Shown in pieces: positions 1 to 33,630 of a DNA stretch of 33,630 nucleotides. The stretch spans positions 1-33,630 of IMG/VR virus record IMGVR_UViG_2541047937_000003, one strand, 5' to 3'. The notes under the pieces are model-generated. The model made no database searches. It saw only the letters and a list, made by a program, of their open reading frames with translations, and was not told the origin of the DNA. Every line of letters starts with the position of its first letter. Position 1 is the first letter of the stretch. Both the position numbers and the translations under genes were made by a program. Source of the DNA: a virus. Lineage: Duplodnaviria > Heunggongvirae > Uroviricota > Caudoviricetes.

Positions 1-1254
1 ATGCTGGAACAAATGGGCATTGCCGCGAAGCAAGCCTCGTATAAATTAGCGCAACTCTCCAGCCGCGAAAAAAATCGCGTGCTGGAAAAAATCGCCGATG
101 AACTGGAAGCACAAAGCGAAATCATCCTCAACGCTAACGCCCAGGATGTTGCTGACGCGCGAGCCAATGGCCTTAGCGAAGCGATGCTTGACCGTCTGGC
201 ACTGACGCCCGCACGGCTGAAAGGCATTGCCGACGATGTACGTCAGGTGTGCAACCTCGCCGATCCGGTGGGGCAGGTAATCGATGGCGGCGTACTGGAC
301 AGCGGCCTGCGTCTTGAGCGTCGTCGCGTACCGCTGGGGGTTATTGGCGTGATTTATGAAGCGCGCCCGAACGTGACGGTTGATGTCGCTTCGCTGTGCC
401 TGAAAACCGGTAATGCGGTGATCCTGCGCGGTGGCAAAGAAACGTGTCGCACTAACGCTGCAACGGTGGCGGTGATTCAGGACGCCCTGAAATCCTGCGG
501 CTTACCGGCGGGTGCCGTGCAGGCGATTGATAATCCTGACCGTGCGCTGGTCAGTGAAATGCTGCGTATGGATAAATACATCGACATGCTGATCCCGCGT
601 GGTGGCGCTGGTTTGCATAAACTGTGCCGTGAACAGTCGACAATCCCGGTGATCACAGGTGGTATAGGCGTATGCCATATTTACGTTGATGAAAGTGTAG
701 AGATCGCTGAAGCATTAAAAGTGATCGTCAACGCGAAAACTCAGCGTCCGAGCACATGTAATACGGTTGAAACGTTGCTGGTGAATAAAAACATCGCCGA
801 TAGCTTCCTGCCCGCATTAAGCAAACAAATGGCGGAAAGCGGCGTGACATTACACGCAGATGCAGCTGCACTGGCGCAGTTGCAGGCAGGCCCTGCGAAG
901 GTGGTTGCTGTTAAAGCCGAAGAGTATGACGATGAGTTTCTGTCATTAGATTTGAACGTCAAAATCGTCAGCGATCTTGACGATGCCATCGCCCATATTC
1001 GTGAACACGGCACACAACACTCCGATGCGATCCTGACCCGCGATATGCGCAACGCCCAGCGTTTTGTTAACGAAGTGGATTCGTCCGCTGTTTACGTTAA
1101 CGCCTCTACGCGTTTTACCGACGGCGGCCAGTTTGGTCTGGGTGCGGAAGTGGCGGTAAGCACACAAAAACTCCACGCGCGTGGCCCAATGGGGCTGGAA
1201 GCACTGACCACTTACAAGTGGATCGGCATTGGTGATTACACCATTCGTGCGTAA
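1..1254 (+). CDS. proA: gamma-glutamyl phosphate reductase ProA, complete 417 aa
   Basis: ORF 1..1254 translates [24 protein letters not shown]... to a TAA stop; recognised as enterobacterial ProA from memory, no search run. Window begins exactly at the ATG. Confidence 0.95.
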
Positions 1255-1368
1255 ATAAAACCGGGTGATGCAAAAGTAGCCATTTGATTCACAAGGCCAT
1301 TGACGCATCGCCCGGTTAGTTTTAACCTTGTCCACCGTGATTCACGTTCGTGAACATGTCCTTTCAGG

Positions 1369-1444
1369 GCCGATATAGCTCAGTTGGTAGAGCAGCGCAT
1401 TCGTAATGCGAAGGTCGTAGGTTCGACTCCTATTATCGGCACCA
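1369..1444 (+). tRNA. thrW: tRNA-Thr (anticodon CGU), 76 nt with CCA end
   Basis: GCCGATATAGCTCAGTTGGTAGAGCAGCGCATTCGTAATGCGAAGGTCGTAGGTTCGACTCCTATTATCGGCACCA folds as a cloverleaf (7-bp acceptor stem, GTTCGACTCC T-arm, anticodon loop TTCGTAA). An integrase gene starts 15 nt downstream, the usual attL arrangement. Confidence 0.93.
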
Positions 1445-1458
1445 TTAAAATCAATAAG

Positions 1459-2622
1459 TTACACATCATTAGTACCTTCCTTATTTTTTGACTGGGACAA
1501 ATTTGGGACCGATGGGTTCAGGATCGAGTCTATTTGCCGTGCGTGTTCGGTAAGGTGATTAGGTGCAAGGTGAGCATATCGACGAACCATTTCGATAGAC
1601 TCCCAGCCTCCCATTTCCTGTAACACTGACAACGGGACTCCGGCTTGAACCAGCCAACTTGCCCAGGTGTGTCTCAAGTCGTGAAATCTGAAATCATCAA
1701 TACCAGCCCGTCTCAGCGCCGCTTTCCAGGCTGTGTTTGCGTCATACCGCATCTTCCTTACTGTTGGCGCTTTCGTTCCGTCTGGTTTGGTACAGCTTTC
1801 CTTGTACACAAATACCCAACGGTGATGATTCCCGATTTGTTTTTTCAATACGCGACATGCAGTATCATTCAGCGCAACGCCAATTGCGCGGTTTGATTTA
1901 CTCTCTTCCGGGTTTATCCATGCCACCCGGCGCTGCATATCTATTTGTTGCCATTCAAGGTTGATGATGTTCGAGCGTCTTAAGCCTGTTGCCAGTGCAA
2001 ATTCAACAACAGACTTTAATGGCTCCGGACATTCATCAATCAGCCTTTGTGCTTCATGGGGCTCCAGCCAGCGGATCCGTTTATTCTTTGGTTGAGGCAC
2101 TTTAATAATTGGTGCCTTATCCAGCATTTTCCATTCACGCTCTGCGGCTCTTAGTAGGGCCTTTATAAATGAAAGATGCGTAGCCTTCGTTGCAACGGAC
2201 GCTGGTTTTGGCGTGTATTCTGGAACAGGTTTCCCTTTTTTTCTGCATGCTTCTGCCCTGAGTTTCCAGTTTTCCTCATGACGCCGGTTTGTCATTTTCT
2301 GCATTGCTGAATAAATTTTTGATTCAGTAATGTCTCTTAGTTGCATTCCTGCGAAATGTTGAAGCCAGAATCCGATCCGGCTTTTGTCATCGTCCAGTGA
2401 TTTTTTATGTGCTTTCTCTTCAAGCCACCTGACACACGCTTCCTCGAACGTTATATCAGGTATTTCACCAAGTTTGCTGACCCGCCATGCTTCAGCCTTT
2501 AGCTTGTCATGGAGTTCTGTCGCCTGCCTTTTGTCCTTTGTTCCAAGAGACTGTTTAAATCTTTTACCGTTCGGCAATGTGAAACTGGCGTACCATATTT
2601 CACCTCTGCGGAAGAGTGACAT
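1459..2622 (-). CDS. phage integrase, tyrosine recombinase (387 aa)
   Basis: C-terminal [39 protein letters not shown] is the tyrosine-recombinase catalytic box; directly adjacent to the tRNA; GAGGAAAG RBS upstream of the ATG. Confidence 0.9.
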
Positions 2623-2849
2623 TTTCTTTCCTCTGTTATGCCATCACCCGCGCTCACCTGGACAGTATGCAGCGGAGACTGAAGAGCCGCAATGCAGGCT
2701 TGTCGTGTTGTGAGGTAAGGAGATTTATTCTTAGTGGGATCTTTGCGTGTTGCCTGAAGACGCCCCGTGCGTATCCAGTTAATGGCAGTCGGTCTGGATA
2801 TCTTGAGAAAATGACAGGCCTCATCGAGTGTGAGGCTGTATGGCTCCAT
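2499..2849 (-). CDS. AlpA/Xis-like excisionase, HTH DNA-binding protein
   Basis: Start chosen at internal ATG ([32 protein letters not shown]...) which overlaps the upstream stop (TAATG). The 3' 124 nt overlap the integrase start, so the true C-terminus is uncertain. Confidence 0.6.
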
Positions 2850-3154
2850 TATTTCACCTCTTGTTGTGACATTGTTGAAAAATGGATACCTGCTCGTTGC
2901 TGCCAGACGATCCAACCGAGAGTCATATCCCATGCCATGTATTCGTTATCGCCGTTTTTTGCTCTCCGACGATCTACTAAGTCACCGAAACGCTTTTCCA
3001 TGAATAATTCATAAGCTTCGCGTTCATCTGGTTCTACTTCCAGAGATAGGAGTGCGATTTCATAAGCACGGCGCTCAATATCGTCTCGCACGTCAAGGCT
3101 GCTGATACGCTCTTTAATTTCTTTAATCAGTTCTTTGTCGGTAAAAGTGGTCAT
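2849..3154 (-). CDS. hypothetical early-left protein, 101 aa (YfdT-like by length and position)
   Basis: ORF with translationally coupled neighbours on both sides; charged helical sequence; family assignment from memory only. Confidence 0.55.
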   Translation of the reverse strand: MTTFTDKELIKEIKERISSLDVRDDIERRAYEIALLSLEVEPDEREAYELFMEKRFGDLVDRRRAKNGDNEYMAWDMTLGWIVWQQRAGIHFSTMSQQEVK

Positions 3155-3516
3155 TATGCTCCAGCCTCCGGTGCTTTTGGCATTACTGCCCAGTGAGTGA
3201 TATTGACGTTTTCAAGGTCCCCGACCTGAAATGTCCACTGCCATTCTCCGGTTTCTTTTTGTCCCCAGGTGTACCAGAGAGAACGCCAGCCAATTAGCCA
3301 GCCTTCTCCGTTAGCATCGAATAACAAAACACTTTCATTTGCTGGTGGCAGTTCAGTTGACACTGGTATTACTTTGTTTTCCTGTGCTGCACATTTAGCT
3401 TCAAGCGCATCGAATTTACGCACCAGGTATTCAGCATCTGTTTCATTCACTTTCAGATCTCGCGGTACACATCTCCCACGAAGAAACCCTTCCATTTCGA
3501 AAACATTCATGCGCAT
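3154..3516 (-). CDS. DUF551-like protein, 120 aa (YfdS-like)
   Basis: Trp-rich C-terminal segment (WRSLWYTWGQKETGEWQWTF...THWAVMPKAPE) resembles DUF551; start and stop overlap neighbouring genes. Confidence 0.55.
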   Translation of the reverse strand: MRMNVFEMEGFLRGRCVPRDLKVNETDAEYLVRKFDALEAKCAAQENKVIPVSTELPPANESVLLFDANGEGWLIGWRSLWYTWGQKETGEWQWTFQVGDLENVNITHWAVMPKAPEAGA

Positions 3517-4043
3517 TTGCGTAACTCCGATAACTCGTTAAAACGTTCCATAAACATCCCGTAGGCATGGCCCGGTGCCTGTGGAATCACTTTGAACATC
3601 TCTGTTGCCGGGATACCTTCCAGTACAGGCCAGAAAGAGCCATCATCAAGCCCGAGATCGCGGCGTTCGGTTGCCAGCATAATGAGATCGGCATATTTCA
3701 CTGGCGTGCTCATAACAGGAGGTAACCCGTATTTCTCACGGATTACGGCGTCTATTTTTTCTTCCATCCGTTTATAGTCAGGAAGAAGTCGTTTCAGTGG
3801 TGCGGGGATGTCCTGGCAATATGCTTCTGTTGCATCATGCATTAAAGCTTCAAAAGCAAATTCCTGTGGCACCAGCTGGCTGCAAAGCACCGCATGTTGG
3901 GCGACACTGTAGAAGTGTGAAAGATGTCCTGCAAAGCGACAGATATTTGAAAGGGAAATCGCGATATCGTTAATAACGATGTCGTCTTTATTTATCCTGT
4001 CATAATAAAAATGCTTCCCGGAAAAAGTTTTAATAAATGACAT
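3507..4043 (-). CDS. HD-domain phosphohydrolase, 178 aa (YfdR-like 5'-deoxynucleotidase)
   Basis: HD-type metal-binding motifs (...AQHAVLCSQL..., ...ALMHDATEAYCQDIP...). Start set at second ATG (MSFIKTF), which has a GGAGA RBS; the track ORF begins 27 nt further upstream. Confidence 0.65.
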   Translation of the reverse strand: MSFIKTFSGKHFYYDRINKDDIVINDIAISLSNICRFAGHLSHFYSVAQHAVLCSQLVPQEFAFEALMHDATEAYCQDIPAPLKRLLPDYKRMEEKIDAVIREKYGLPPVMSTPVKYADLIMLATERRDLGLDDGSFWPVLEGIPATEMFKVIPQAPGHAYGMFMERFNELSELRKCA

Positions 4044-4136
4044 TTTGTTCTCCACGTATATGCGCTGCACCGCGCTGAGTTTGGGTAAAAGGAAGCCCTC
4101 ACCATCCGGTGATTATTGAGTTAATTACGTTTCCAT

Positions 4137-4158
4137 AAATGCCCCCGCAGGGGCATTT
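4137..4158 (-). terminator. GC-rich hairpin between the YfdQ-like and YfdR-like genes (possible attenuator or RNA stability element)
   Basis: AAATGCCCC-cgca-GGGGCATTT, perfect 9-bp stem; only a weak T tract follows on the minus strand. Confidence 0.25.
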
Positions 4159-4170
4159 GCAGTAATGAAA

Positions 4171-4995
4171 TCAGGCGGTGAAAGTACCAATAAAGGTTTC
4201 TACTTTGCTGTCTTTGAATTTCTCAACAAGCAGATCACGAAATTCGTTAGCCATATCTTCCTGCACTGCTTCCAGCTGAATAATGCGCAGAACCAGTACA
4301 GGACGATCGCCAGTGATAATGCTGAGGCGTAATTTAAACGGACGTTCTTTCAGACCTTCAAACGGAACGCATTTAAATTCAAATGCCACTGGCATAATGT
4401 CTTTGGTCTTCGCTTCGACAGATTCCATCAGGGAGCGTTTGCCGCTGAAGTCATTATCTTCAAAATCAGCGGTCTGGTTTGCTTCAATCGTGATTTTACG
4501 GATTGCCGCAGCCGCTTTTGTTGCCTGAATGGCGTCACCATTAGCATCAAAGCCCACAAGGTAGTCGGCCCAGTCTTCAATCCATTCTGCCAGTGACTTC
4601 TGGGAGTTACGCTCGCCGTTAACAGACAACAGAGCAGAGAACGGTGCTGTCTTTTTCAGTTTGAGTGTGGCGGTGTTATCTGCGTGACCTGGTTCATCAA
4701 TAGTACCCAGGTTAAGCACACTGACGGCACGCATATTATCAGCATCGATAAAGCAGCGGGTGCCTTCATCTGCAAGATCTTTAGAATAACGGGTAAAGTC
4801 ATCGATGCTGGCAGTGGAAAGCGCACCACGGAAACGGAAGCGATTTAAATTAAATTTTTCCAGATCATGAATGCGGAAATTCTCAGGCAATGCCACAGCA
4901 TCGGCACCAATCTTACTGATAATTTCATTAACACCCTGAGCAGAAATAAGGGCATGGATTTGATTAATTGCGGTTGCGTCTAAGTTCTGAGACAT
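4171..4995 (-). CDS. YfdQ-like protein (DUF2303 family), 274 aa
   Basis: Complete ORF, typical codon usage, same length as YfdQ of CPS-53; family from memory, not verified. Confidence 0.6.
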
Positions 4996-5060
4996 AATAA
5001 GTCCTCACTATATAAAGATATTCAGTGATGAGATAAATAATCAGTTAATTAAAAACGATA

Positions 5061-5423
5061 TTAACGACCTGCTGCGCGGAGTTTTCCGTCAGGTTCACCG
5101 GCAAGAGTCAGCAACTGTCCCTGGTCTTCCTGCAGAATAGTCAGGCGACCACCGCGATTGACATACATCGGCGTTTCGGTGGTGTCTTCTTCGGAAATTT
5201 TCCCGCGGTTAGTCGGGCGAACATATGAGAGTTTGTGTTTGATTTTCACTCGGTTCTCATCAAACGGTTCGATTTCCAGGTTGAGCGAGACCTTACCTTT
5301 GGTTTTCGTGTTCATCACACCGGAAGCGACTTCACTGAGAACTGCGCCGATTTTGGTTTCAAATACGCCGCCGTCCAGCTCCCCGATAAATGCCTGCACA
5401 TCAGTACTGCGTTCGCTAGCCAT
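5061..5423 (-). CDS. hypothetical protein, 120 aa (YfdP-like), first gene of the early-left cluster
   Basis: Start set at ATG preceded by GAGGAG RBS (MASERSTDVQAFIGELDGG...); the longer 226-aa track ORF runs into GC-rich non-coding DNA. Confidence 0.6.
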   Translation of the reverse strand: MASERSTDVQAFIGELDGGVFETKIGAVLSEVASGVMNTKTKGKVSLNLEIEPFDENRVKIKHKLSYVRPTNRGKISEEDTTETPMYVNRGGRLTILQEDQGQLLTLAGEPDGKLRAAGR

Positions 5424-5891
5424 TTTGCTGCTCCTCATCATATCGACCCTGCAAGGTCGGTTAGTTTCTCCACAAAACAGAGAAGAACACCTGCGGTGGC
5501 TGCCGCCCGGATGGATTGGGTTATGAGCCCGTCGTCCGGTGATGCTCTTCTCTGTTTTGTAAAAAGGACGGTACCAGCCGGAAGCAAGGGTACAAGCTGG
5601 TACCGCCAAGACTACACACAGCATAAAGTTGTGGTGCCGGGTGCCTCCCGGTGCCTGGCGAAGGTTGCACACCAGGCGGGTGGGTATCCACAGAAGGTCG
5701 ACTGTCAGCCTCAACCTTAACCCGCGTGCGCTGAGCCGCATTCACCACAACGCTAAGGATTCTCTCTGGTTGAAAATACTTAGCTGTTATGTGCCTGCTT
5801 TTAGCCACATCAGGCGAGGTGGACCTAGTTATTCCCCAACAACAAGGATTCGGTTAATCTGGTTATCCCCAACAACGCAAAAGGAAAAGAA

Positions 5892-6326
5892 ATGTCCGGT
5901 AATATCTATACGCTGTACAAATCCCACTGTGAAAATGTTGGAAAGTATCGGGGCATTGAAATCAGTGGGGTAGTGTCATCAGTCGAAATAAGCAAAGTTG
6001 AATCAAGGGCAACATTACTTACTCTTCTGGACCTTGTCTTACATGAGCACCGGAAGAAATTCGGCACTCCCTATAATCAGTTGAATGGGAAAAAGGCTCT
6101 GGTTCACCTTATTCTGATGAAGCATCACTGGATGCCAAAACAGATTAATGAGATGAAATTTGATGAACTTCTTCTTTCAATTCAGGATGAACTCACACTT
6201 GATAAAATAAGCGTAACCGCCCAGAAATTTTTAGATTATCGAGACTGGAGATCACAAATTCATCACTTTGATGATTTTGACGAAAATGAATGGGATCCTA
6301 ATTTGTCTGCACAATATCTAAAGTAA
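5892..6326 (+). CDS. AT-rich accessory protein, 144 aa, unknown function
   Basis: ORF with AAGGAAAAG RBS; visibly lower GC than neighbours; strand opposite to the surrounding early-left genes; own intrinsic terminator at 6562..6590. Confidence 0.6.
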   Translation: MSGNIYTLYKSHCENVGKYRGIEISGVVSSVEISKVESRATLLTLLDLVLHEHRKKFGTPYNQLNGKKALVHLILMKHHWMPKQINEMKFDELLLSIQDELTLDKISVTAQKFLDYRDWRSQIHHFDDFDENEWDPNLSAQYLK

Positions 6327-6504
6327 CATCCTGTGATAAAACCGTGATTTCCTGATCCAGTTTTTTTAAGGAGTCTATTGTTTCCTGTCGATAAGACAGC
6401 ACTTCACGAAGCTGGTTTATAGCTGCCAGCTTCTTTGTCATCCACTCATAAATTTCCTCATCTGTGTAGCCAGGCGCGACGATTTTGGGTTCTGTTTTGT
6501 GCAT
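6298..6504 (-). CDS. small hypothetical protein, 68 aa, convergent with and overlapping the 144-aa gene
   Basis: ATG with GAGGAG RBS 9 nt upstream (MHKTEPKIVAPGYTDEEIYEW...); first ORF downstream of the OL operators. Confidence 0.45.
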   Translation of the reverse strand: MHKTEPKIVAPGYTDEEIYEWMTKKLAAINQLREVLSYRQETIDSLKKLDQEITVLSQDVTLDIVQTN

Positions 6505-6561
6505 TTCACATCTCCTCAAGTTATCAGTTACTTGTTGATGGGGACCAGATTGTTAAAGAGC

Positions 6562-6590
6562 TAAGCGTCCTGTAGGGCGCTTTTTTGTTG
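6562..6590 (+). terminator. rho-independent terminator
   Basis: AGCGTCC-tgta-GGGCGCT stem (one G-U pair) followed by TTTTTTG. Confidence 0.6.
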
Positions 6591-6752
6591 CTAACGAATC
6601 ATCCTGGACTTCATATGCCCCAGGCGGCTACTTCGTGGGCGTCCTGCCTGTTCGTTTTTGACATTTACTGACTGCTTACGACACATGCACCGTGTTGCAA
6701 CCAGATTTTGTTGTAATCCTGTAGTTGGTCTGGAACAAAAGATAAAATTAAA

Positions 6753-6789
6753 TTGCGAGATATGCAAGTGGTATTTGCGAGATATGCAA
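6753..6789. promoter_or_regulatory. two tandem 15-bp operator copies (OL-like), TTGCGAGATATGCAA at 6753..6767 and 6775..6789
   Basis: Identical 15-mers with palindromic TTGCG...GCAA ends, 22-bp centre-to-centre, just beyond the cI terminator; a third related copy is at 7557..7571 between cI and cro. Confidence 0.6.
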
Positions 6790-6799
6790 ATTTATAGGT

Positions 6800-6825
6800 A
6801 ATAAAAAGCCACCTTTCGGTGGCCG
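6800..6825 (-). terminator. rho-independent terminator of the cI-like gene
   Basis: GCCACC-tttc-GGTGGC hairpin (6808..6823) followed on the minus strand by TTTTTAT; lies 20 nt after the cI stop. Confidence 0.7.
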
Positions 6826-6843
6826 ATGGATGGGATATTGAGG

Positions 6844-7536
6844 TTAATTATGTCTCTTAAGGGTTTGCGACTGACTGATTAAGACCTTTCCAAAGACCAT
6901 GAATCGGTGTTCGTTTTCGCTAGTAATTCCCCATTCACGGTAAATCTGGTTATCAGAAATCACCAGCAGTTTGTCAGGAATCATTTGAAGTCTTTTAACG
7001 TATATTTTGTCATCAAAACCAAAGACATATATACCATCACCATCAAACTGATTGATGCTGACATCAACGAAGATGAGATCTCCTGGCTCAATGGTTGGAC
7101 ACATACTGTCCCCACGAACGTTGATAACTTTGATGTGATTGGCTGGTCGTCCGCCGAACATTGATACAGCATTATCAGTTCTGTATTCGATGGCATGAAT
7201 CACATCAATGACATCACCGCCCTGGATAAGGCCATTTCCCGCACTGGCACTGATATCCAGCATTTCAATACGGAACACATCCTTCACCTGCGCAACATCC
7301 TCATTATTACTGTTTTTATATACAGTATTACTTTTGTGGGCAGAGGTAAAGAGATCAGCAATATCAACACCTAAGCTCTTGGCAATATTACTCAGTGTTT
7401 GTTCGGTAAATTGTTTTTGCTTACCCGTTTCTAAGCGCGAGATGTTCGCCGCATCTACTCCTATCGCTTCAGCGAGATCGGCGATTTTCATGTTCTTCGC
7501 TTGGCGAAGTTGTCTGACTCGGTTTCCTATGTTCAT
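6844..7536 (-). CDS. cI-type repressor, N-terminal HTH plus C-terminal S24 LexA-like peptidase domain (230 aa)
   Basis: N-terminus MNIGNRVRQLRQAKNMKIADLAEAIGVDAANISRLETGKQ (HTH); C-terminus GDSMCPTIEPGDLIFVD...YVKRLQ (Ser/Lys dyad); divergent from a cro-like gene. Confidence 0.85.
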   Translation of the reverse strand: MNIGNRVRQLRQAKNMKIADLAEAIGVDAANISRLETGKQKQFTEQTLSNIAKSLGVDIADLFTSAHKSNTVYKNSNNEDVAQVKDVFRIEMLDISASAGNGLIQGGDVIDVIHAIEYRTDNAVSMFGGRPANHIKVINVRGDSMCPTIEPGDLIFVDVSINQFDGDGIYVFGFDDKIYVKRLQMIPDKLLVISDNQIYREWGITSENEHRFMVFGKVLISQSQTLKRHN

Positions 7537-7633
7537 GCGTTTATTACATTTCTTTATTGCGTGATAAGCAAATCAACTTGCGCAAAATAATTGCGTGAAA
7601 TAACATGCATAACGCGCAATATTTGGAGGGCGT
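7537..7633. promoter_or_regulatory. divergent cI/cro promoter-operator region (OR/PR/PRM equivalent)
   Basis: Contains TTGCGTGATAAGCAA (7557..7571), palindromic TTGCGCAA (7578..7585) and further TTGCG/CGCAA half-sites; candidate PR -35 TTGCGC (7578..7583) and -10 TAACAT (7601..7606) with 17-bp spacer; GGAGGG RBS before cro. Confidence 0.6.
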
Positions 7634-7894
7634 ATGCAATCACCATTACGAAATGTGCGTAAGGCGCATGGTTTCACTTTGCAGCATGTTGCTGCGGGTG
7701 TTCAAGTCAATCCAGCGACGTTGAGTCGTATTGAGAGGCTGGAGCAGATTCCATCTATCGAGCTTGCAGAACGTTTAGCCAATTTTTTTAAGGGTGAAGT
7801 CAGCGAAATGCAGATTCTTTATCCGGCACGTTTTCAATCTAGCCAAAACCAGAATGGGTTTAAACCACAGGAACAGGAGGTGAACCGTGGGTAA
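7634..7894 (+). CDS. Cro-like HTH regulator, 86 aa
   Basis: HTH segment FTLQHVAAGVQVNPATLSRIERLEQIPSIELAERLANFF; divergent from the cI-like gene. Confidence 0.7.
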   Translation: MQSPLRNVRKAHGFTLQHVAAGVQVNPATLSRIERLEQIPSIELAERLANFFKGEVSEMQILYPARFQSSQNQNGFKPQEQEVNRG

Positions 7895-8438
7895 GCATCA
7901 CTGGAAAGTAGAAAAACAGCCTGAGTGGTACGTGAAAGCTGTCAGAAAAACTATCGCAGCGTTGCCGGGGGGGTACGCTGAAGCTGCTGACTGGCTGGAT
8001 GTAACAGAGAACGCATTATTTAACCGCCTTCGTGCCGATGGCGATCAGATTTTCCCGCTGGGATGGGCAATGATTTTGCAACGTGCTGGTGGAACTCACT
8101 TCATTGCTGACGCTGTGGCGCAGTCTGCAAATGGCGTCTTTGTGTCTCTTCCTGATGTCGAGGATGTGGACAACGCCGATATCAACCAACGCCTGCTGGA
8201 GGTCATTGAACAGATCGGCAGTTATTCAAAACAGATTCGTTCAGCAATTGAAGACGGTGTAGTGGAACCGCATGAGAAGACAGCAATTAACGACGAGCTG
8301 TACCTCTCAATTTCGAAGCTGCAGGAGCATGCAGCACTGGTCTACAAAATTTTTTGCATTTCAGAAAGTAATGACGCCCGCGAGTGTGCAGCTCTGGGCG
8401 CCGTGGCGTGTCGTGACTGTGGAGAAACTAACGCATGA
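7887..8438 (+). CDS. hypothetical early-right protein, 183 aa (possibly CII-like or YdaT-like regulator)
   Basis: Start overlaps cro stop; C-terminal Cys cluster ([14 protein letters not shown]); family not recognised with confidence. Confidence 0.5.
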
Positions 8439-8793
8439 ACAGTTTAACAACACACTACCGTCGCTCGCAACTGATTGCGCTTCCTGTACCGGGTGGAAAA
8501 GCGAAGGTGGAGTATTGCTATGCAGTAAATGTACCAGGTGGCAGGGTAATTGTAACCCACAGCTTTGCAGAGTGGGCTGTGGGTGATTTTAACCGGCAAA
8601 AGGAGACAGTCCTTTGCGACAAGTTAACCGCTGGTTCAAAGATCACTACGGAGTACCCGTCAGAGTCATTCGTTGGGAGCCGGAAACACAACGGGTTATC
8701 TACCTCCGTGAAGGCTATGAGCATGAGTGCTTCAGCCCGCTCGAACAGTTTCGTCGTAAATTCAGGGAAATAGAGGTCGGTCATGAGCACTAA
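8435..8793 (+). pseudogene. hypothetical gene with apparent frame change: protein-like N-terminal part in one frame (8435..about 8610), protein-like C-terminal part in another (8614..8793)
   Basis: Track ORF 8435..8773 has a plausible first 59 aa then S/T-rich low-complexity tail; the other frame from TTG 8614 (AAGGAG-like RBS GGAGA at 8602..8606) gives [59 protein letters not shown] and ends overlapping the O-like start. Confidence 0.35.
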
Positions 8794-9724: not shown

Positions 9725-9726
9725 TC

Positions 9727-10515: not shown

Positions 10516-10534
10516 TCAAGAGGAGAAACGAAGT

Positions 10535-23096: not shown

Positions 23097-23115
23097 ACTT
23101 CGTTTCTCCTCTTGA

Positions 23116-23505: not shown

Positions 23506-23904
23506 ACTTTCAGGCCTCTCTCATGTAACCAGTGGGCTGCACGCAGCCTGGCGTTTTCCTCACCGGCAAGCAGTGCGCGGATAATCCCGACCGCCTCGCT
23601 GTCGTCGTCCTTCACCGCGGTATGAAGCGTTATCCCCCGGGCCACGCCACGCTTTATCGTGATGACGCCTTTTTTCTCCAGTGCACGAAGATGCTCTACC
23701 GCTGCATTCACTGAACGGCAGGCGTGGGAAATGTCTGCGTGTATCTCCTTCACAACGGTGAGCCACACGCCCACTCTGACGTAACTTGCTTGCTGACTGC
23801 AGAACGCGCTGCCGTGAGTAACCTGCAAAAGCATCCGCAATGTCTCCGGAAGTACACCCCGGATGGGCTTCAATGAATTTCTGAACTTCATTCAAAAGAC
23901 TCAT
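23502..23904 (-). pseudogene. frame-interrupted LexA-type wHTH gene (mirror copy of 9727..10129)
   Basis: Mirror copy. Confidence 0.35.
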
Positions 23905-23906
23905 GA

Positions 23907-24848: not shown

Positions 24849-25196
24849 GACCGACCTCTATTTCCCTGAATTTACGACGAAACTGTTCGAGCGGGCTGAA
24901 GCACTCATGCTCATAGCCTTCACGGAGGTAGATAACCCGTTGTGTTTCCGGCTCCCAACGAATGACTCTGACGGGTACTCCGTAGTGATCTTTGAACCAG
25001 CGGTTAACTTGTCGCAAAGGACTGTCTCCTTTTGCCGGTTAAAATCACCCACAGCCCACTCTGCAAAGCTGTGGGTTACAATTACCCTGCCACCTGGTAC
25101 ATTTACTGCATAGCAATACTCCACCTTCGCTTTTCCACCCGGTACAGGAAGCGCAATCAGTTGCGAGCGACGGTAGTGTGTTGTTAAACTGTTCAT
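24838..25196 (-). pseudogene. frame-changed hypothetical gene (mirror copy of 8435..8793)
   Basis: Mirror copy. Confidence 0.3.
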
Positions 25197-25744
25197 GCGT
25201 TAGTTTCTCCACAGTCACGACACGCCACGGCGCCCAGAGCTGCACACTCGCGGGCGTCATTACTTTCTGAAATGCAAAAAATTTTGTAGACCAGTGCTGC
25301 ATGCTCCTGCAGCTTCGAAATTGAGAGGTACAGCTCGTCGTTAATTGCTGTCTTCTCATGCGGTTCCACTACACCGTCTTCAATTGCTGAACGAATCTGT
25401 TTTGAATAACTGCCGATCTGTTCAATGACCTCCAGCAGGCGTTGGTTGATATCGGCGTTGTCCACATCCTCGACATCAGGAAGAGACACAAAGACGCCAT
25501 TTGCAGACTGCGCCACAGCGTCAGCAATGAAGTGAGTTCCACCAGCACGTTGCAAAATCATTGCCCATCCCAGCGGGAAAATCTGATCGCCATCGGCACG
25601 AAGGCGGTTAAATAATGCGTTCTCTGTTACATCCAGCCAGTCAGCAGCTTCAGCGTACCCCCCCGGCAACGCTGCGATAGTTTTTCTGACAGCTTTCACG
25701 TACCACTCAGGCTGTTTTTCTACTTTCCAGTGATGCTTACCCAC
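25193..25744 (-). CDS. hypothetical early-right protein, 183 aa (mirror copy of 7887..8438)
   Basis: Identical translation on opposite strand. Confidence 0.45.
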
Positions 25745-25997
25745 GGTTCACCTCCTGTTCCTGTGGTTTAAACCCATTCTGGTTTTGGCTAGATTGAAAA
25801 CGTGCCGGATAAAGAATCTGCATTTCGCTGACTTCACCCTTAAAAAAATTGGCTAAACGTTCTGCAAGCTCGATAGATGGAATCTGCTCCAGCCTCTCAA
25901 TACGACTCAACGTCGCTGGATTGACTTGAACACCCGCAGCAACATGCTGCAAAGTGAAACCATGCGCCTTACGCACATTTCGTAATGGTGATTGCAT
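25737..25997 (-). CDS. Cro-like HTH regulator (mirror copy of 7634..7894)
   Basis: Identical translation on opposite strand. Confidence 0.65.
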   Translation of the reverse strand: MQSPLRNVRKAHGFTLQHVAAGVQVNPATLSRIERLEQIPSIELAERLANFFKGEVSEMQILYPARFQSSQNQNGFKPQEQEVNRG

Positions 25998-26094
25998 ACG
26001 CCCTCCAAATATTGCGCGTTATGCATGTTATTTCACGCAATTATTTTGCGCAAGTTGATTTGCTTATCACGCAATAAAGAAATGTAATAAACGC
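25998..26094. promoter_or_regulatory. cI/cro promoter-operator region (mirror copy of 7537..7633)
   Basis: Mirror copy. Confidence 0.55.
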
Positions 26095-26787
26095 ATGAAC
26101 ATAGGAAACCGAGTCAGACAACTTCGCCAAGCGAAGAACATGAAAATCGCCGATCTCGCTGAAGCGATAGGAGTAGATGCGGCGAACATCTCGCGCTTAG
26201 AAACGGGTAAGCAAAAACAATTTACCGAACAAACACTGAGTAATATTGCCAAGAGCTTAGGTGTTGATATTGCTGATCTCTTTACCTCTGCCCACAAAAG
26301 TAATACTGTATATAAAAACAGTAATAATGAGGATGTTGCGCAGGTGAAGGATGTGTTCCGTATTGAAATGCTGGATATCAGTGCCAGTGCGGGAAATGGC
26401 CTTATCCAGGGCGGTGATGTCATTGATGTGATTCATGCCATCGAATACAGAACTGATAATGCTGTATCAATGTTCGGCGGACGACCAGCCAATCACATCA
26501 AAGTTATCAACGTTCGTGGGGACAGTATGTGTCCAACCATTGAGCCAGGAGATCTCATCTTCGTTGATGTCAGCATCAATCAGTTTGATGGTGATGGTAT
26601 ATATGTCTTTGGTTTTGATGACAAAATATACGTTAAAAGACTTCAAATGATTCCTGACAAACTGCTGGTGATTTCTGATAACCAGATTTACCGTGAATGG
26701 GGAATTACTAGCGAAAACGAACACCGATTCATGGTCTTTGGAAAGGTCTTAATCAGTCAGTCGCAAACCCTTAAGAGACATAATTAA
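26095..26787 (+). CDS. cI-type repressor with S24 peptidase domain (mirror copy of 6844..7536)
   Basis: Identical translation on opposite strand. Confidence 0.8.
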   Translation: MNIGNRVRQLRQAKNMKIADLAEAIGVDAANISRLETGKQKQFTEQTLSNIAKSLGVDIADLFTSAHKSNTVYKNSNNEDVAQVKDVFRIEMLDISASAGNGLIQGGDVIDVIHAIEYRTDNAVSMFGGRPANHIKVINVRGDSMCPTIEPGDLIFVDVSINQFDGDGIYVFGFDDKIYVKRLQMIPDKLLVISDNQIYREWGITSENEHRFMVFGKVLISQSQTLKRHN

Positions 26788-26841
26788 CCTCAATATCCCA
26801 TCCATCGGCCACCGAAAGGTGGCTTTTTATTACCTATAAAT

Positions 26842-26878
26842 TTGCATATCTCGCAAATACCACTTGCATATCTCGCAA
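26842..26878. promoter_or_regulatory. two tandem 15-bp operators (mirror copy of 6753..6789)
   Basis: TTGCATATCTCGCAA at 26842..26856 and 26864..26878. Confidence 0.55.
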
Positions 26879-27126
26879 TTTAATTTTATCTTTTGTTCCA
26901 GACCAACTACAGGATTACAACAAAATCTGGTTGCAACACGGTGCATGTGTCGTAAGCAGTCAGTAAATGTCAAAAACGAACAGGCAGGACGCCCACGAAG
27001 TAGCCGCCTGGGGCATATGAAGTCCAGGATGATTCGTTAGCAACAAAAAAGCGCCCTACAGGACGCTTAGCTCTTTAACAATCTGGTCCCCATCAACAAG
27101 TAACTGATAACTTGAGGAGATGTGAA

Positions 27127-27333
27127 ATGCACAAAACAGAACCCAAAATCGTCGCGCCTGGCTACACAGATGAGGAAATTTATGAGTGGATGACAAAGAA
27201 GCTGGCAGCTATAAACCAGCTTCGTGAAGTGCTGTCTTATCGACAGGAAACAATAGACTCCTTAAAAAAACTGGATCAGGAAATCACGGTTTTATCACAG
27301 GATGTTACTTTAGATATTGTGCAGACAAATTAG
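27127..27333 (+). CDS. small hypothetical protein, 68 aa (mirror copy of 6298..6504)
   Basis: ATG at 27127 with GAGGAG RBS. Confidence 0.4.
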   Translation: MHKTEPKIVAPGYTDEEIYEWMTKKLAAINQLREVLSYRQETIDSLKKLDQEITVLSQDVTLDIVQTN

Positions 27334-27739
27334 GATCCCATTCATTTTCGTCAAAATCATCAAAGTGATGAATTTGTGATCTCCAGTCTCGATAATCTAA
27401 AAATTTCTGGGCGGTTACGCTTATTTTATCAAGTGTGAGTTCATCCTGAATTGAAAGAAGAAGTTCATCAAATTTCATCTCATTAATCTGTTTTGGCATC
27501 CAGTGATGCTTCATCAGAATAAGGTGAACCAGAGCCTTTTTCCCATTCAACTGATTATAGGGAGTGCCGAATTTCTTCCGGTGCTCATGTAAGACAAGGT
27601 CCAGAAGAGTAAGTAATGTTGCCCTTGATTCAACTTTGCTTATTTCGACTGATGACACTACCCCACTGATTTCAATGCCCCGATACTTTCCAACATTTTC
27701 ACAGTGGGATTTGTACAGCGTATAGATATTACCGGACAT
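27305..27739 (-). CDS. AT-rich accessory protein, 144 aa (mirror copy of 5892..6326)
   Basis: Identical translation on opposite strand. Confidence 0.55.
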   Translation of the reverse strand: MSGNIYTLYKSHCENVGKYRGIEISGVVSSVEISKVESRATLLTLLDLVLHEHRKKFGTPYNQLNGKKALVHLILMKHHWMPKQINEMKFDELLLSIQDELTLDKISVTAQKFLDYRDWRSQIHHFDDFDENEWDPNLSAQYLK

Positions 27740-28207
27740 TTCTTTTCCTTTTGCGTTGTTGGGGATAACCAGATTAACCGAATCCTTGTTGTTGGGGAAT
27801 AACTAGGTCCACCTCGCCTGATGTGGCTAAAAGCAGGCACATAACAGCTAAGTATTTTCAACCAGAGAGAATCCTTAGCGTTGTGGTGAATGCGGCTCAG
27901 CGCACGCGGGTTAAGGTTGAGGCTGACAGTCGACCTTCTGTGGATACCCACCCGCCTGGTGTGCAACCTTCGCCAGGCACCGGGAGGCACCCGGCACCAC
28001 AACTTTATGCTGTGTGTAGTCTTGGCGGTACCAGCTTGTACCCTTGCTTCCGGCTGGTACCGTCCTTTTTACAAAACAGAGAAGAGCATCACCGGACGAC
28101 GGGCTCATAACCCAATCCATCCGGGCGGCAGCCACCGCAGGTGTTCTTCTCTGTTTTGTGGAGAAACTAACCGACCTTGCAGGGTCGATATGATGAGGAG
28201 CAGCAAA

Positions 28208-28570
28208 ATGGCTAGCGAACGCAGTACTGATGTGCAGGCATTTATCGGGGAGCTGGACGGCGGCGTATTTGAAACCAAAATCGGCGCAGTTCTCAGTGAA
28301 GTCGCTTCCGGTGTGATGAACACGAAAACCAAAGGTAAGGTCTCGCTCAACCTGGAAATCGAACCGTTTGATGAGAACCGAGTGAAAATCAAACACAAAC
28401 TCTCATATGTTCGCCCGACTAACCGCGGGAAAATTTCCGAAGAAGACACCACCGAAACGCCGATGTATGTCAATCGCGGTGGTCGCCTGACTATTCTGCA
28501 GGAAGACCAGGGACAGTTGCTGACTCTTGCCGGTGAACCTGACGGAAAACTCCGCGCAGCAGGTCGTTAA
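28208..28570 (+). CDS. hypothetical protein, 120 aa, YfdP-like (mirror copy of 5061..5423)
   Basis: ATG at 28208 preceded by GAGGAG. Confidence 0.55.
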   Translation: MASERSTDVQAFIGELDGGVFETKIGAVLSEVASGVMNTKTKGKVSLNLEIEPFDENRVKIKHKLSYVRPTNRGKISEEDTTETPMYVNRGGRLTILQEDQGQLLTLAGEPDGKLRAAGR

Positions 28571-28635
28571 TATCGTTTTTAATTAACTGATTATTTATCT
28601 CATCACTGAATATCTTTATATAGTGAGGACTTATT

Positions 28636-29460
28636 ATGTCTCAGAACTTAGACGCAACCGCAATTAATCAAATCCATGCCCTTATTTCTGCTCAGGGTGT
28701 TAATGAAATTATCAGTAAGATTGGTGCCGATGCTGTGGCATTGCCTGAGAATTTCCGCATTCATGATCTGGAAAAATTTAATTTAAATCGCTTCCGTTTC
28801 CGTGGTGCGCTTTCCACTGCCAGCATCGATGACTTTACCCGTTATTCTAAAGATCTTGCAGATGAAGGCACCCGCTGCTTTATCGATGCTGATAATATGC
28901 GTGCCGTCAGTGTGCTTAACCTGGGTACTATTGATGAACCAGGTCACGCAGATAACACCGCCACACTCAAACTGAAAAAGACAGCACCGTTCTCTGCTCT
29001 GTTGTCTGTTAACGGCGAGCGTAACTCCCAGAAGTCACTGGCAGAATGGATTGAAGACTGGGCCGACTACCTTGTGGGCTTTGATGCTAATGGTGACGCC
29101 ATTCAGGCAACAAAAGCGGCTGCGGCAATCCGTAAAATCACGATTGAAGCAAACCAGACCGCTGATTTTGAAGATAATGACTTCAGCGGCAAACGCTCCC
29201 TGATGGAATCTGTCGAAGCGAAGACCAAAGACATTATGCCAGTGGCATTTGAATTTAAATGCGTTCCGTTTGAAGGTCTGAAAGAACGTCCGTTTAAATT
29301 ACGCCTCAGCATTATCACTGGCGATCGTCCTGTACTGGTTCTGCGCATTATTCAGCTGGAAGCAGTGCAGGAAGATATGGCTAACGAATTTCGTGATCTG
29401 CTTGTTGAGAAATTCAAAGACAGCAAAGTAGAAACCTTTATTGGTACTTTCACCGCCTGA
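28636..29460 (+). CDS. YfdQ-like protein (mirror copy of 4171..4995)
   Basis: Identical translation on opposite strand. Confidence 0.55.
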
Positions 29461-29587
29461 TTTCATTACTGCAAATGCCCCTGCGGGGGCATTTATGGAA
29501 ACGTAATTAACTCAATAATCACCGGATGGTGAGGGCTTCCTTTTACCCAAACTCAGCGCGGTGCAGCGCATATACGTGGAGAACAAA

Positions 29588-30124
29588 ATGTCATTTATTA
29601 AAACTTTTTCCGGGAAGCATTTTTATTATGACAGGATAAATAAAGACGACATCGTTATTAACGATATCGCGATTTCCCTTTCAAATATCTGTCGCTTTGC
29701 AGGACATCTTTCACACTTCTACAGTGTCGCCCAACATGCGGTGCTTTGCAGCCAGCTGGTGCCACAGGAATTTGCTTTTGAAGCTTTAATGCATGATGCA
29801 ACAGAAGCATATTGCCAGGACATCCCCGCACCACTGAAACGACTTCTTCCTGACTATAAACGGATGGAAGAAAAAATAGACGCCGTAATCCGTGAGAAAT
29901 ACGGGTTACCTCCTGTTATGAGCACGCCAGTGAAATATGCCGATCTCATTATGCTGGCAACCGAACGCCGCGATCTCGGGCTTGATGATGGCTCTTTCTG
30001 GCCTGTACTGGAAGGTATCCCGGCAACAGAGATGTTCAAAGTGATTCCACAGGCACCGGGCCATGCCTACGGGATGTTTATGGAACGTTTTAACGAGTTA
30101 TCGGAGTTACGCAAATGCGCATGA
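29588..30124 (+). CDS. HD-domain phosphohydrolase, YfdR-like (mirror copy of 3507..4043)
   Basis: Mirror copy. Confidence 0.6.
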   Translation: MSFIKTFSGKHFYYDRINKDDIVINDIAISLSNICRFAGHLSHFYSVAQHAVLCSQLVPQEFAFEALMHDATEAYCQDIPAPLKRLLPDYKRMEEKIDAVIREKYGLPPVMSTPVKYADLIMLATERRDLGLDDGSFWPVLEGIPATEMFKVIPQAPGHAYGMFMERFNELSELRKCA

Positions 30125-30477
30125 ATGTTTTCGAAATGGAAGGGTTTCTTCGTGGGAGATGTGTACCGCGAGATCTGAAAGTGAATGAAACAGATGCTGA
30201 ATACCTGGTGCGTAAATTCGATGCGCTTGAAGCTAAATGTGCAGCACAGGAAAACAAAGTAATACCAGTGTCAACTGAACTGCCACCAGCAAATGAAAGT
30301 GTTTTGTTATTCGATGCTAACGGAGAAGGCTGGCTAATTGGCTGGCGTTCTCTCTGGTACACCTGGGGACAAAAAGAAACCGGAGAATGGCAGTGGACAT
30401 TTCAGGTCGGGGACCTTGAAAACGTCAATATCACTCACTGGGCAGTAATGCCAAAAGCACCGGAGGCTGGAGCATAA
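30115..30477 (+). CDS. DUF551-like protein (mirror copy of 3154..3516)
   Basis: Identical translation on opposite strand. Confidence 0.5.
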   Translation: MRMNVFEMEGFLRGRCVPRDLKVNETDAEYLVRKFDALEAKCAAQENKVIPVSTELPPANESVLLFDANGEGWLIGWRSLWYTWGQKETGEWQWTFQVGDLENVNITHWAVMPKAPEAGA

Positions 30478-30782
30478 TGACCACTTTTACCGACAAAGAA
30501 CTGATTAAAGAAATTAAAGAGCGTATCAGCAGCCTTGACGTGCGAGACGATATTGAGCGCCGTGCTTATGAAATCGCACTCCTATCTCTGGAAGTAGAAC
30601 CAGATGAACGCGAAGCTTATGAATTATTCATGGAAAAGCGTTTCGGTGACTTAGTAGATCGTCGGAGAGCAAAAAACGGCGATAACGAATACATGGCATG
30701 GGATATGACTCTCGGTTGGATCGTCTGGCAGCAACGAGCAGGTATCCATTTTTCAACAATGTCACAACAAGAGGTGAAATAA
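30477..30782 (+). CDS. hypothetical protein, 101 aa (mirror copy of 2849..3154)
   Basis: Identical translation on opposite strand. Confidence 0.5.
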   Translation: MTTFTDKELIKEIKERISSLDVRDDIERRAYEIALLSLEVEPDEREAYELFMEKRFGDLVDRRRAKNGDNEYMAWDMTLGWIVWQQRAGIHFSTMSQQEVK

Positions 30783-31132
30783 TGGAGCCATACAGCCTCA
30801 CACTCGATGAGGCCTGTCATTTTCTCAAGATATCCAGACCGACTGCCATTAACTGGATACGCACGGGGCGTCTTCAGGCAACACGCAAAGATCCCACTAA
30901 GAATAAATCTCCTTACCTCACAACACGACAAGCCTGCATTGCGGCTCTTCAGTCTCCGCTGCATACTGTCCAGGTGAGCGCGGGTGATGGCATAACAGAG
31001 GAAAGAAAATGTCACTCTTCCGCAGAGGTGAAATATGGTACGCCAGTTTCACATTGCCGAACGGTAAAAGATTTAAACAGTCTCTTGGAACAAAGGACAA
31101 AAGGCAGGCGACAGAACTCCATGACAAGCTAA
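30782..31132 (+). CDS. AlpA/Xis-like excisionase (mirror copy of 2499..2849)
   Basis: ATG at 30782 overlapping the upstream TAA. Confidence 0.55.
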
Positions 31133-32172
31133 AGGCTGAAGCATGGCGGGTCAGCAAACTTGGTGAAATACCTGATATAACGTTCGAGGAAGCGTGTGTC
31201 AGGTGGCTTGAAGAGAAAGCACATAAAAAATCACTGGACGATGACAAAAGCCGGATCGGATTCTGGCTTCAACATTTCGCAGGAATGCAACTAAGAGACA
31301 TTACTGAATCAAAAATTTATTCAGCAATGCAGAAAATGACAAACCGGCGTCATGAGGAAAACTGGAAACTCAGGGCAGAAGCATGCAGAAAAAAAGGGAA
31401 ACCTGTTCCAGAATACACGCCAAAACCAGCGTCCGTTGCAACGAAGGCTACGCATCTTTCATTTATAAAGGCCCTACTAAGAGCCGCAGAGCGTGAATGG
31501 AAAATGCTGGATAAGGCACCAATTATTAAAGTGCCTCAACCAAAGAATAAACGGATCCGCTGGCTGGAGCCCCATGAAGCACAAAGGCTGATTGATGAAT
31601 GTCCGGAGCCATTAAAGTCTGTTGTTGAATTTGCACTGGCAACAGGCTTAAGACGCTCGAACATCATCAACCTTGAATGGCAACAAATAGATATGCAGCG
31701 CCGGGTGGCATGGATAAACCCGGAAGAGAGTAAATCAAACCGCGCAATTGGCGTTGCGCTGAATGATACTGCATGTCGCGTATTGAAAAAACAAATCGGG
31801 AATCATCACCGTTGGGTATTTGTGTACAAGGAAAGCTGTACCAAACCAGACGGAACGAAAGCGCCAACAGTAAGGAAGATGCGGTATGACGCAAACACAG
31901 CCTGGAAAGCGGCGCTGAGACGGGCTGGTATTGATGATTTCAGATTTCACGACTTGAGACACACCTGGGCAAGTTGGCTGGTTCAAGCCGGAGTCCCGTT
32001 GTCAGTGTTACAGGAAATGGGAGGCTGGGAGTCTATCGAAATGGTTCGTCGATATGCTCACCTTGCACCTAATCACCTTACCGAACACGCACGGCAAATA
32101 GACTCGATCCTGAACCCATCGGTCCCAAATTTGTCCCAGTCAAAAAATAAGGAAGGTACTAATGATGTGTAA
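31009..32172 (+). CDS. phage integrase, tyrosine recombinase (mirror copy of 1459..2622)
   Basis: Identical translation on opposite strand. Confidence 0.85.
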
Positions 32173-32186
32173 CTTATTGATTTTAA

Positions 32187-32262
32187 TGGTGCCGATAATA
32201 GGAGTCGAACCTACGACCTTCGCATTACGAATGCGCTGCTCTACCAACTGAGCTATATCGGC
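32187..32262 (-). tRNA. thrW: tRNA-Thr (CGU), second copy (mirror of 1369..1444)
   Basis: Reverse complement of the left-arm tRNA. Confidence 0.9.
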
Positions 32263-32376
32263 CCTGAAAGGACATGTTCACGAACGTGAATCACGGTGGA
32301 CAAGGTTAAAACTAACCGGGCGATGCGTCAATGGCCTTGTGAATCAAATGGCTACTTTTGCATCACCCGGTTTTAT

Positions 32377-33630
32377 TTACGCACGAATGGTGTAATCACC
32401 AATGCCGATCCACTTGTAAGTGGTCAGTGCTTCCAGCCCCATTGGGCCACGCGCGTGGAGTTTTTGTGTGCTTACCGCCACTTCCGCACCCAGACCAAAC
32501 TGGCCGCCGTCGGTAAAACGCGTAGAGGCGTTAACGTAAACAGCGGACGAATCCACTTCGTTAACAAAACGCTGGGCGTTGCGCATATCGCGGGTCAGGA
32601 TCGCATCGGAGTGTTGTGTGCCGTGTTCACGAATATGGGCGATGGCATCGTCAAGATCGCTGACGATTTTGACGTTCAAATCTAATGACAGAAACTCATC
32701 GTCATACTCTTCGGCTTTAACAGCAACCACCTTCGCAGGGCCTGCCTGCAACTGCGCCAGTGCAGCTGCATCTGCGTGTAATGTCACGCCGCTTTCCGCC
32801 ATTTGTTTGCTTAATGCGGGCAGGAAGCTATCGGCGATGTTTTTATTCACCAGCAACGTTTCAACCGTATTACATGTGCTCGGACGCTGAGTTTTCGCGT
32901 TGACGATCACTTTTAATGCTTCAGCGATCTCTACACTTTCATCAACGTAAATATGGCATACGCCTATACCACCTGTGATCACCGGGATTGTCGACTGTTC
33001 ACGGCACAGTTTATGCAAACCAGCGCCACCACGCGGGATCAGCATGTCGATGTATTTATCCATACGCAGCATTTCACTGACCAGCGCACGGTCAGGATTA
33101 TCAATCGCCTGCACGGCACCCGCCGGTAAGCCGCAGGATTTCAGGGCGTCCTGAATCACCGCCACCGTTGCAGCGTTAGTGCGACACGTTTCTTTGCCAC
33201 CGCGCAGGATCACCGCATTACCGGTTTTCAGGCACAGCGAAGCGACATCAACCGTCACGTTCGGGCGCGCTTCATAAATCACGCCAATAACCCCCAGCGG
33301 TACGCGACGACGCTCAAGACGCAGGCCGCTGTCCAGTACGCCGCCATCGATTACCTGCCCCACCGGATCGGCGAGGTTGCACACCTGACGTACATCGTCG
33401 GCAATGCCTTTCAGCCGTGCGGGCGTCAGTGCCAGACGGTCAAGCATCGCTTCGCTAAGGCCATTGGCTCGCGCGTCAGCAACATCCTGGGCGTTAGCGT
33501 TGAGGATGATTTCGCTTTGTGCTTCCAGTTCATCGGCGATTTTTTCCAGCACGCGATTTTTTTCGCGGCTGGAGAGTTGCGCTAATTTATACGAGGCTTG
33601 CTTCGCGGCAATGCCCATTTGTTCCAGCAT
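32377..33630 (-). CDS. proA: gamma-glutamyl phosphate reductase ProA, second copy (mirror of 1..1254)
   Basis: Identical 417-aa translation on opposite strand; window ends exactly at its start codon. Confidence 0.9.

Follow-up and report, generated by a model that had tools for sequence, protein, structure and literature searches.

The window analysed here, the whole stretch of 33,630 nucleotides held as positions 1 to 33,630 of the IMG/VR virus record IMGVR_UViG_2541047937_000003 (Caudoviricetes), is almost entirely its own reverse complement: proA, thrW and a decayed prophage are written twice, in mirror image, on either side of an invertible tail-fibre segment. The question raised by this locus is whether such a palindrome exists in a bacterial chromosome or was made during assembly. 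The window corresponds to positions 47456-81085 of scaffold KE702347.1 (128,540 bp; GCA_000461235.1) of Escherichia coli UMEA 3318-1, a draft scaffold from 2013, i.e. of the Illumina era. The palindrome is very probably a fold-back misassembly in this draft, produced when the assembler ran from the arm through the segment into the reverse arm, a false route in its graph, and the mirror-image feature is not biological.

The window was compared base by base with its own reverse complement. Positions 1-15837 pair with positions 17794-33630, exactly save for the pair 15830/17801; a first reading made from the sequence alone (the sequence-only reading) had set the arms at 1-15836 and 17795-33630, and there was no substantial arm non-identity. 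Apart from that one pair, all of the 1,464 mismatching positions lie inside 15838-17793. The mirror axis falls at 16815/16816, within the invertible segment, where the same reading had placed it. Between the ends of the window and the crossover core the arms agree at every base (100% identity, 0 mismatches over 15,824 bp), and the right arm carries the second complete proA (32377-33630, minus strand; open reading frame list) and the second tRNA-Thr(CGT) (32187-32262; ARAGORN) that had been noted before. Such a palindrome cannot have arisen by chance.

Scaffold KE702347.1 extends 47,455 bp beyond the window on either side. The two mirrored copies of terS lie at 62543-63214 and 65327-65998 of the scaffold, their coordinates sum to 128,540 + 1, and the mirror axis is thus the exact midpoint of KE702347.1. 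Therefore, and judged from this midpoint arithmetic alone, the whole 128.5-kb scaffold is probably a fold-back, palindromic throughout. Identical arms with an axis at the middle of the scaffold are as expected of a fold-back. The UMEA 3318-1 locus L002 is identical to the window from window position 5088 on, and the 223-aa terS-tail-fibre fusion protein is represented at NCBI by two accessions only, EQY91140.1 and EQY91144.1, which are the two mirror copies in UMEA 3318-1.

The sole non-palindromic part of the window, its centre, proves to be an invertible tail-fibre segment of the Pin/Gin type. Two 26-bp crossover sites in inverted orientation enclose it; they have conserved half-sites and a common 2-bp core (TT at 15823-24, AA at 17807-08), and the copied arms end at these cores. 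The half-sites presumably match the hix/gix consensus. When the right site is read in reverse complement (CTCTCGAAAACC TT GGTTTAGGAGAA), it differs from the left site in its inner half only: the 12 bp at 15825-15836 and the 12 bp at 17795-17806 are the inner recombinase half-sites of the segment, and form imperfect inverted repeats (GGTTTGGGAGAA and GGTTTAGGAGAA). Both inner half-sites, with the identical G/A difference, are found in the closest complete genome, NZ_CM136167.1, and are swapped there as its opposite segment orientation predicts. The inner half-sites hence travel with the segment, and the single G 15830/T 17801 mismatch, correctly located inside the crossover site by the sequence-only reading, is a natural and conserved difference between them; a sequencing error or a divergence of the arms was considered as its source and rejected.

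The segment holds two opposed cassettes, each of a tail-fibre C-terminus and an assembly chaperone (Pfam: Collar once, Caudo_TAP twice), and each C-terminus is in frame with the constant N-terminal part outside, so that MLQEEL...ENLGLGE continues into either AAKRNVG... or GSALPVG... at the two junctions. C-terminus 2 (Sv2) is identical to that of the 266-aa tail fibre of NZ_CM136167.1. Both orientations occur in nature: the window and NZ_CM136167.1 are opposite, and two near-identical complete genomes (L025 and L026) differ in segment orientation only. All four junction types are represented across the relatives.

The gene order in NZ_CM136167.1 is tail fibre, segment, pinE and a KAP NTPase gene, with a different outer half-site on the invertase side. 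In relatives this half-site is CGTTTATGAAAA (TTTTCATAAACG in the crossover-site comparison), and pinE, encoding a 184-aa serine invertase, lies 30 bp beyond the right site. No invertase was found in the window by tblastn with PinE (best E=2.5), i.e. no serine invertase gene (Resolvase plus HTH_7) adjoins the segment there, and where relatives have the invertase-side half-site, the right site has an outer half that reverse-complements the left arm. The absence of the invertase from the window is what a fold-back misassembly predicts.

The following course of events would account for these observations. The true locus most likely comprises proA, thrW and a decayed SfV/SfIV-like prophage up to the tail-fibre stub (together A), the segment (S), and pinE with the prophage right end (B). 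A Pin/Gin-family serine invertase would flip S in the culture by cutting the 2-bp cores of the two inverted 26-bp sites, and among the reads both ends of S would then be found attached to A, and likewise both to B. If the assembly graph is strand-symmetric, each end of S would be linked to both A and B, which gives four paths through S, two of them true (A to B, with S in either orientation) and two false (A to reverse A, and reverse B to B). The assembler would have followed A-S-reverse A and so have written A twice, though no molecule has that order; the error would probably span all 128.5 kb, because the axis lies on the scaffold midpoint. Why the false path was chosen is a matter of speculation. 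An artefact of this kind predicts another scaffold that starts at or near ...AACGTTTATGAAAATGCAG, on the invertase side.

The 'invertible segment', with both ends linking to the same two neighbours, is a recognised motif of assembly graphs (RGFA, PMC5103826), and the pinE segment of prophage e14 has been found in both orientations within clonal cultures (PMC4272514). The position of the palindrome join exactly at the crossover core, and the fact that both arm-segment junctions are real inversion types, fit a misassembly of this origin. A different artefact, in which chimeric fold-back molecules or read pairs from library construction gave false links from arm to arm, is unlikely: the date and sequencing era of the draft would suit it, and jumping libraries with their circularisation chimeras were presumably used, as we take to have been the submitter's practice, but random chimeras would not join exactly at the core on both sides around a complete S, which the inversion graph does predict. 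We therefore infer that the join was made by the assembler's traversal of the graph and not by chimeric library molecules.

The crossover core is also the place where the recombinase cuts, and the real sequence of both junctions would be equally at home in a real head-to-head structure, for which Pin would have acted across two sister chromosomes, recombining a left site on the first with a right site on the second. The product would be an inverted chromosome dimer (A-S-reverse A plus the reciprocal reverse B-S-B) or a fixed inverted duplication of at least 63 kb. Such an event would conflict with the one-molecule restriction of these enzymes: invertases of the Gin/Hin/Pin family are known to act almost only on inverted sites in one supercoiled molecule, with a Fis-bound enhancer. 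In addition, an inverted chromosome dimer should not be resolvable at dif. The segment is present once in the UMEA 3318-1 assembly, so that the reciprocal reverse B-S-B is absent. We consider this explanation very unlikely; if true, it would be a natural case of a DNA invertase producing a large chromosomal palindrome.

Evidence that is independent of the scaffold came from Logan contigs, which are k=31 assemblies built independently from raw reads, with the strain-unique fusion proteins and deletions. The arm contig (L003) stops at 15829, one base short of the G/A difference and at the final base common to the two inner half-sites; therefore the arm is joined to both segment ends in the reads. 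A second contig (L008) equals window positions 15823-17808 at 100%, i.e. the segment from core to core. The join of the palindrome coincides with these branch points of the independent read assembly, the sample behind L008 not being proven to be of this strain. The k=31 unitigs expected of two genomes were simulated with a de Bruijn graph. For a pure arm-segment-reverse arm genome the segment unitig was 2,032 bp (15800-17831), and for arm-segment-invertase side in both orientations it was exactly 1,986 bp (15823-17808); the 1,986-bp unitig appeared only if the segment had two different flanks. The end of L003 and the span of L008 were both reproduced by the second of these genomes alone. Seven contigs with exact tfaE are on record, every Logan one of them 1,986 bp long, and none of the seven is a segment contig of 2,032 bp.

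The branch of the arm contig at 15829 and the symmetric scaffold are compatible with the head-to-head structure, and the arm stop would fit any real palindrome; the segment contig is thus the discriminating evidence. With A on both flanks, the head-to-head structure should have given the 2,032-bp contig that is missing from the record. The same read evidence speaks against a large inverted duplication formed without the invertase, e.g. by a template switch at the short inverted repeats of the crossover sites, a mechanism that has been proposed for tandem inversion duplications, with arms of at least 63 kb. The crossover sites are natural inverted repeats of about 20 bp that could prime a strand switch, and zero divergence of the arms would suit a very recent event. 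The lack of any visible outer junction counts against it, the use of the exact recombinase core would be a coincidence, and the right end of the prophage, with the chromosome that follows, would have to be deleted or displaced; we regard this explanation as extremely improbable. The alternative left standing by the sequence-only reading, a real inverted duplication or a head-to-head dimer, is thus not favoured, given the core-to-core segment contig and the absent reciprocal product.

Complete genomes and relatives point the same way. In none of 5,426 complete E. coli genomes does A lie on both sides of the segment, which bears out the earlier remark that two inverted copies of proA, thrW and prophage are not a normal arrangement, and which also speaks against the head-to-head structure; the best matches (99.9%) break off on one side at a crossover site. 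The identical 147-aa chaperone gene was compared in ten further contexts (L022-L031), in P2-like, Mu-like and other myovirus prophages. All ten have a tail-fibre gene on one side of the segment, nine have a serine invertase gene or its remnant on the opposite side and one has none there, and the palindromic arrangement occurs in 0 of the ten. The fold-back through both segment orientations in the culture, as proposed from the sequence, is therefore supported by the join at the core, the breaks of the Logan contigs, the relatives, the complete genomes and the axis at the midpoint.

Several points weigh against the misassembly, or at least against its details. The sample of L008 (SRR786316, one of 3) differs from the sample of the strain-specific contigs (SRR958741, one of 4), so that the origin of the 1,986-bp contig from UMEA 3318-1 reads is likely but not proven. 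The end of the arm contig at 15829 and the symmetric scaffold are also expected from a real inverted duplication. We infer from indirect evidence that the B side lies elsewhere in the UMEA 3318-1 genome: besides the core-to-core segment contig there is a weaker hint in the accession numbers, since those of tfa (WP_021570661) and tfaE (WP_021570662; EQY91142) lie close to those of PinE (WP_021570684) and the KAP NTPase (WP_021570685) of a relative, which suggests that all of these proteins were first registered from the same genome batch. A literature search gave no direct report of palindromic scaffolds from ALLPATHS-LG or at invertible segments, and this assembler is the one which we assume to have been used, again from the submitter's practice. 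The single paper found to name UMEA 3318-1 has no bearing on the question.

The internal deletions of the prophage are a matter apart from the misassembly. BLAST against NZ_CM136167.1 shows that three stretches are missing from the window, of 412 bp, 1,456 bp and 16.2 kb. The 412-bp deletion lies at 9912/9913 in the yfdN/PerC region, and the 1,456-bp deletion (BLAST junction 10781-10782) joins KilA-N to DUF968; apart from UMEA 3318-1, only Logan contigs (4 samples) encode the resulting 86-aa KilA-N/DUF968 fusion protein. The 16.2-kb deletion took the genes from terL to ymfQ together with 19 bp at the start of the tail-fibre gene and links the end of terS to tail-fibre base 20, with an imperfect microhomology of a few bases; all head, tail and baseplate genes are gone through it. 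A second assembly error was considered for this deletion and rejected: the read-derived contig L003 (4 samples) spans the junction unbroken and is 100% identical to the window. The 16.2-kb deletion is therefore real, and the 14-kb prophage is a genuine deletion derivative, a remnant that is decaying at several places and has no morphogenesis genes. With the start of the tail-fibre gene and all other morphogenesis genes lost, the switch has no phage left to serve.

The features of the window are collected in Table 1. The right arm is most likely a computational copy, and the left arm (1-15824) is probably the true one.

Table 1. Features of the 33,630-nucleotide window, with the evidence for each (strand "." where none applies)
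Feature	Position	Strand	Evidence or remark
Left arm: proA, thrW, decayed SfV/SfIV-like prophage, up to the crossover core	1-15824	+	NZ_CM136167.1 match 99.8-100% outside the three deletions
proA, glutamate-5-semialdehyde dehydrogenase, 417 aa	1-1254	+	Open reading frame; proA annotation in the matching NZ_CM136167.1 region
thrW tRNA-Thr(CGT), prophage attachment site, attL side	1369-1444	+	ARAGORN; Rfam tRNA 71.8 bits
Prophage tyrosine integrase, 387 aa	1459-2622	-	Pfam Phage_integrase E=3e-48
CI-like repressor (HTH + Peptidase_S24)	6844-7536	-	Pfam matches
KilA-N/DUF968 remnants of the 1,456-bp deletion	10535-10871	+	BLAST junction vs NZ_CM136167.1
Q-type antiterminator	10885-11637	+	Pfam Antiterm E=1e-53
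terS (small terminase subunit), out-of-frame fusion with tail-fibre sequence, 223 aa	15088-15759	+	Pfam Terminase_4
16.2-kb deletion junction	15553-15558 (mirror 18073-18078)	.	BLAST to L001: 19893 joined to 36123
Constant N-terminal tail-fibre remnant, start codon lost	15559-15824	+	Alignment to the 266-aa tail fibre of NZ_CM136167.1
Left 26-bp crossover site, CTCTCGAAAACC TT GGTTTGGGAGAA	15811-15836	+	Sequence
Invertible segment, two opposed cassettes (tail-fibre C-terminus + assembly chaperone each)	15825-17806	.	1,982 bp between cores
Alternative tail-fibre C-terminus 1 (Sv1), in frame with the left arm	15825-16277	+	Translation; weak Gp53-like_C, under the Pfam cut-off
Tail-fibre assembly chaperone 1, 147 aa	16280-16723	+	Pfam Caudo_TAP E=6e-28
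Tail-fibre assembly chaperone 2, tfaE-like, 200 aa	16695-17297	-	Pfam Caudo_TAP E=2e-32; EQY91142.1, WP_021570662.1
Alternative tail-fibre C-terminus 2 (Sv2), in frame with the right arm	17297-17806	-	Pfam Collar E=1e-15
Right 26-bp crossover site, TTCTCCTAAACC AA GGTTTTCGAGAG	17795-17820	+	Sequence
Right arm	17807-33630	-	Exact reverse-complement copy of 1-15824; 0 mismatches; not in any relative or complete genome

The left arm belongs to an SfV/SfIV-like prophage at thrW, as indicated by the integrase beside the tRNA-Thr gene (15 bp past thrW) and by collinearity with the reference phages. Shigella phage SfIV matches the left arm with 96.9% identity over 63% of the query, and SfIV, SfII and SfV match it with 96-97% DNA identity over 54-63%. 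The intact prophage in NZ_CM136167.1 (99.8-100% identity) comprises integrase, early genes, repressor, replication genes, Q, lysis genes, HNH, terS, terL and head genes, and continues with a Mu-like tail and baseplate, the 266-aa tail fibre, the invertible segment, pinE and the KAP NTPase. What the window carries falls short of a full, inducible phage genome: the morphogenesis genes are deleted, an attR copy of thrW was not found, and the attR-like sequence of relative L004 matches only thrW and its mirror. The Rfam scan of the window gave nothing besides the tRNA.

In the proA gene, 14 of the 19 differences from NZ_CM136167.1 within the first 9.9 kb are clustered within 500 bp (630-1137), which looks like a recombined allele patch beside the phage attachment site. 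The protein of this proA allele is present in more than 53,000 collection blocks.

The prophage right end past pinE in the relatives (L001, 39250-41586; L004, 12346-17447) encodes a 778-aa KAP-family P-loop NTPase and two GIY-YIG nuclease-like proteins; in the Shigella phages the gtr O-antigen genes occupy the corresponding position. The KAP NTPase and GIY-YIG genes may be defence cargo. In several relatives the invertase beside the segment is truncated (153 aa or 42 aa) or missing (L004, 11542-12003; L024, 2849-2977; L023, about 5024-5320), and therefore inversion there needs an invertase from elsewhere or has ceased. The identical 147-aa chaperone and a common segment layout are found in P2-like, Mu/SfV-like and at least one other myovirus prophage type, and also in Salmonella; the chaperone-bearing segment appears to be a mobile host-range module common to unrelated tail systems. 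Of 195 collection blocks with the chaperone gene, 106 have it on contigs that are all shorter than 2 kb. Evidently short-read assemblies often leave the segment on its own, as a contig of about 2 kb, which points to orientation mixtures being widespread.

For users of the sequence, the palindrome is a data-quality matter. Scaffold KE702347.1 appears to give about 63 kb of chromosome a second time as its mirror image, and duplicate protein records result from this (e.g. the pair of terS-tail-fibre fusion proteins named above). A second proA, thrW or prophage in UMEA 3318-1 should not be counted as a duplication, a paralogue or a second integration; the earlier warning that all right-arm features are copies was correct, and should be widened to the whole scaffold. 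More generally, a contig whose halves mirror each other around a unique core of about 2 kb can be taken as a flag for active inversion of a DNA segment in the culture from which the reads came. The biology behind the palindrome is ordinary and already well known: an SfV-like prophage at thrW, itself gutted, has kept a Pin-type tail-fibre switch.

The segment resembles the P segment of e14 with pinE (E. coli K-12), the G segment of Mu with Gin and the C segment of P1 with Cin in several respects: about 2 kb lie between inverted 26-bp sites with TTnTCnnAAACC-type half-sites and a 2-bp core, and two opposed cassettes of C-terminus and chaperone are present, one of which is fused by inversion to the constant N-terminal part outside. 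Relatives share with these systems the serine invertase, of 184 aa and annotated as pinE, directly beside the segment. The window differs in that its invertase side is replaced by a mirror of the tail-fibre side, and in that its tail-fibre gene has no start and all other morphogenesis genes are gone.

The prophage is like SfIV, SfII and SfV in its P22-type integrase next to thrW and in its early, regulatory, replication, Q and lysis modules. Unlike these phages, the related E. coli prophages examined have no gtr genes and carry pinE, the KAP NTPase and the GIY-YIG genes at the right end, and the UMEA 3318-1 copy has the three deletions in addition.

Large inverted chromosomal repeats are known from tandem inversion duplications in Salmonella and E. 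coli, which, in the model of the Roth laboratory, reportedly have three copies and two junctions and are usually remodelled by deletion. The window is like these structures in being a large inverted chromosomal repeat that pivots on a short natural inverted repeat, and unlike them in having two exact copies and no outer junction, and in the read evidence against a real duplication. The Logan contigs display the break pattern of the 'invertible segment' of RGFA (PMC5103826), in which orientation and pairing are unreadable from the graph alone; unlike RGFA, which orients the segment at random between its two neighbours, the assembly of KE702347.1 apparently used the same neighbour twice, and this neighbour is hence duplicated.

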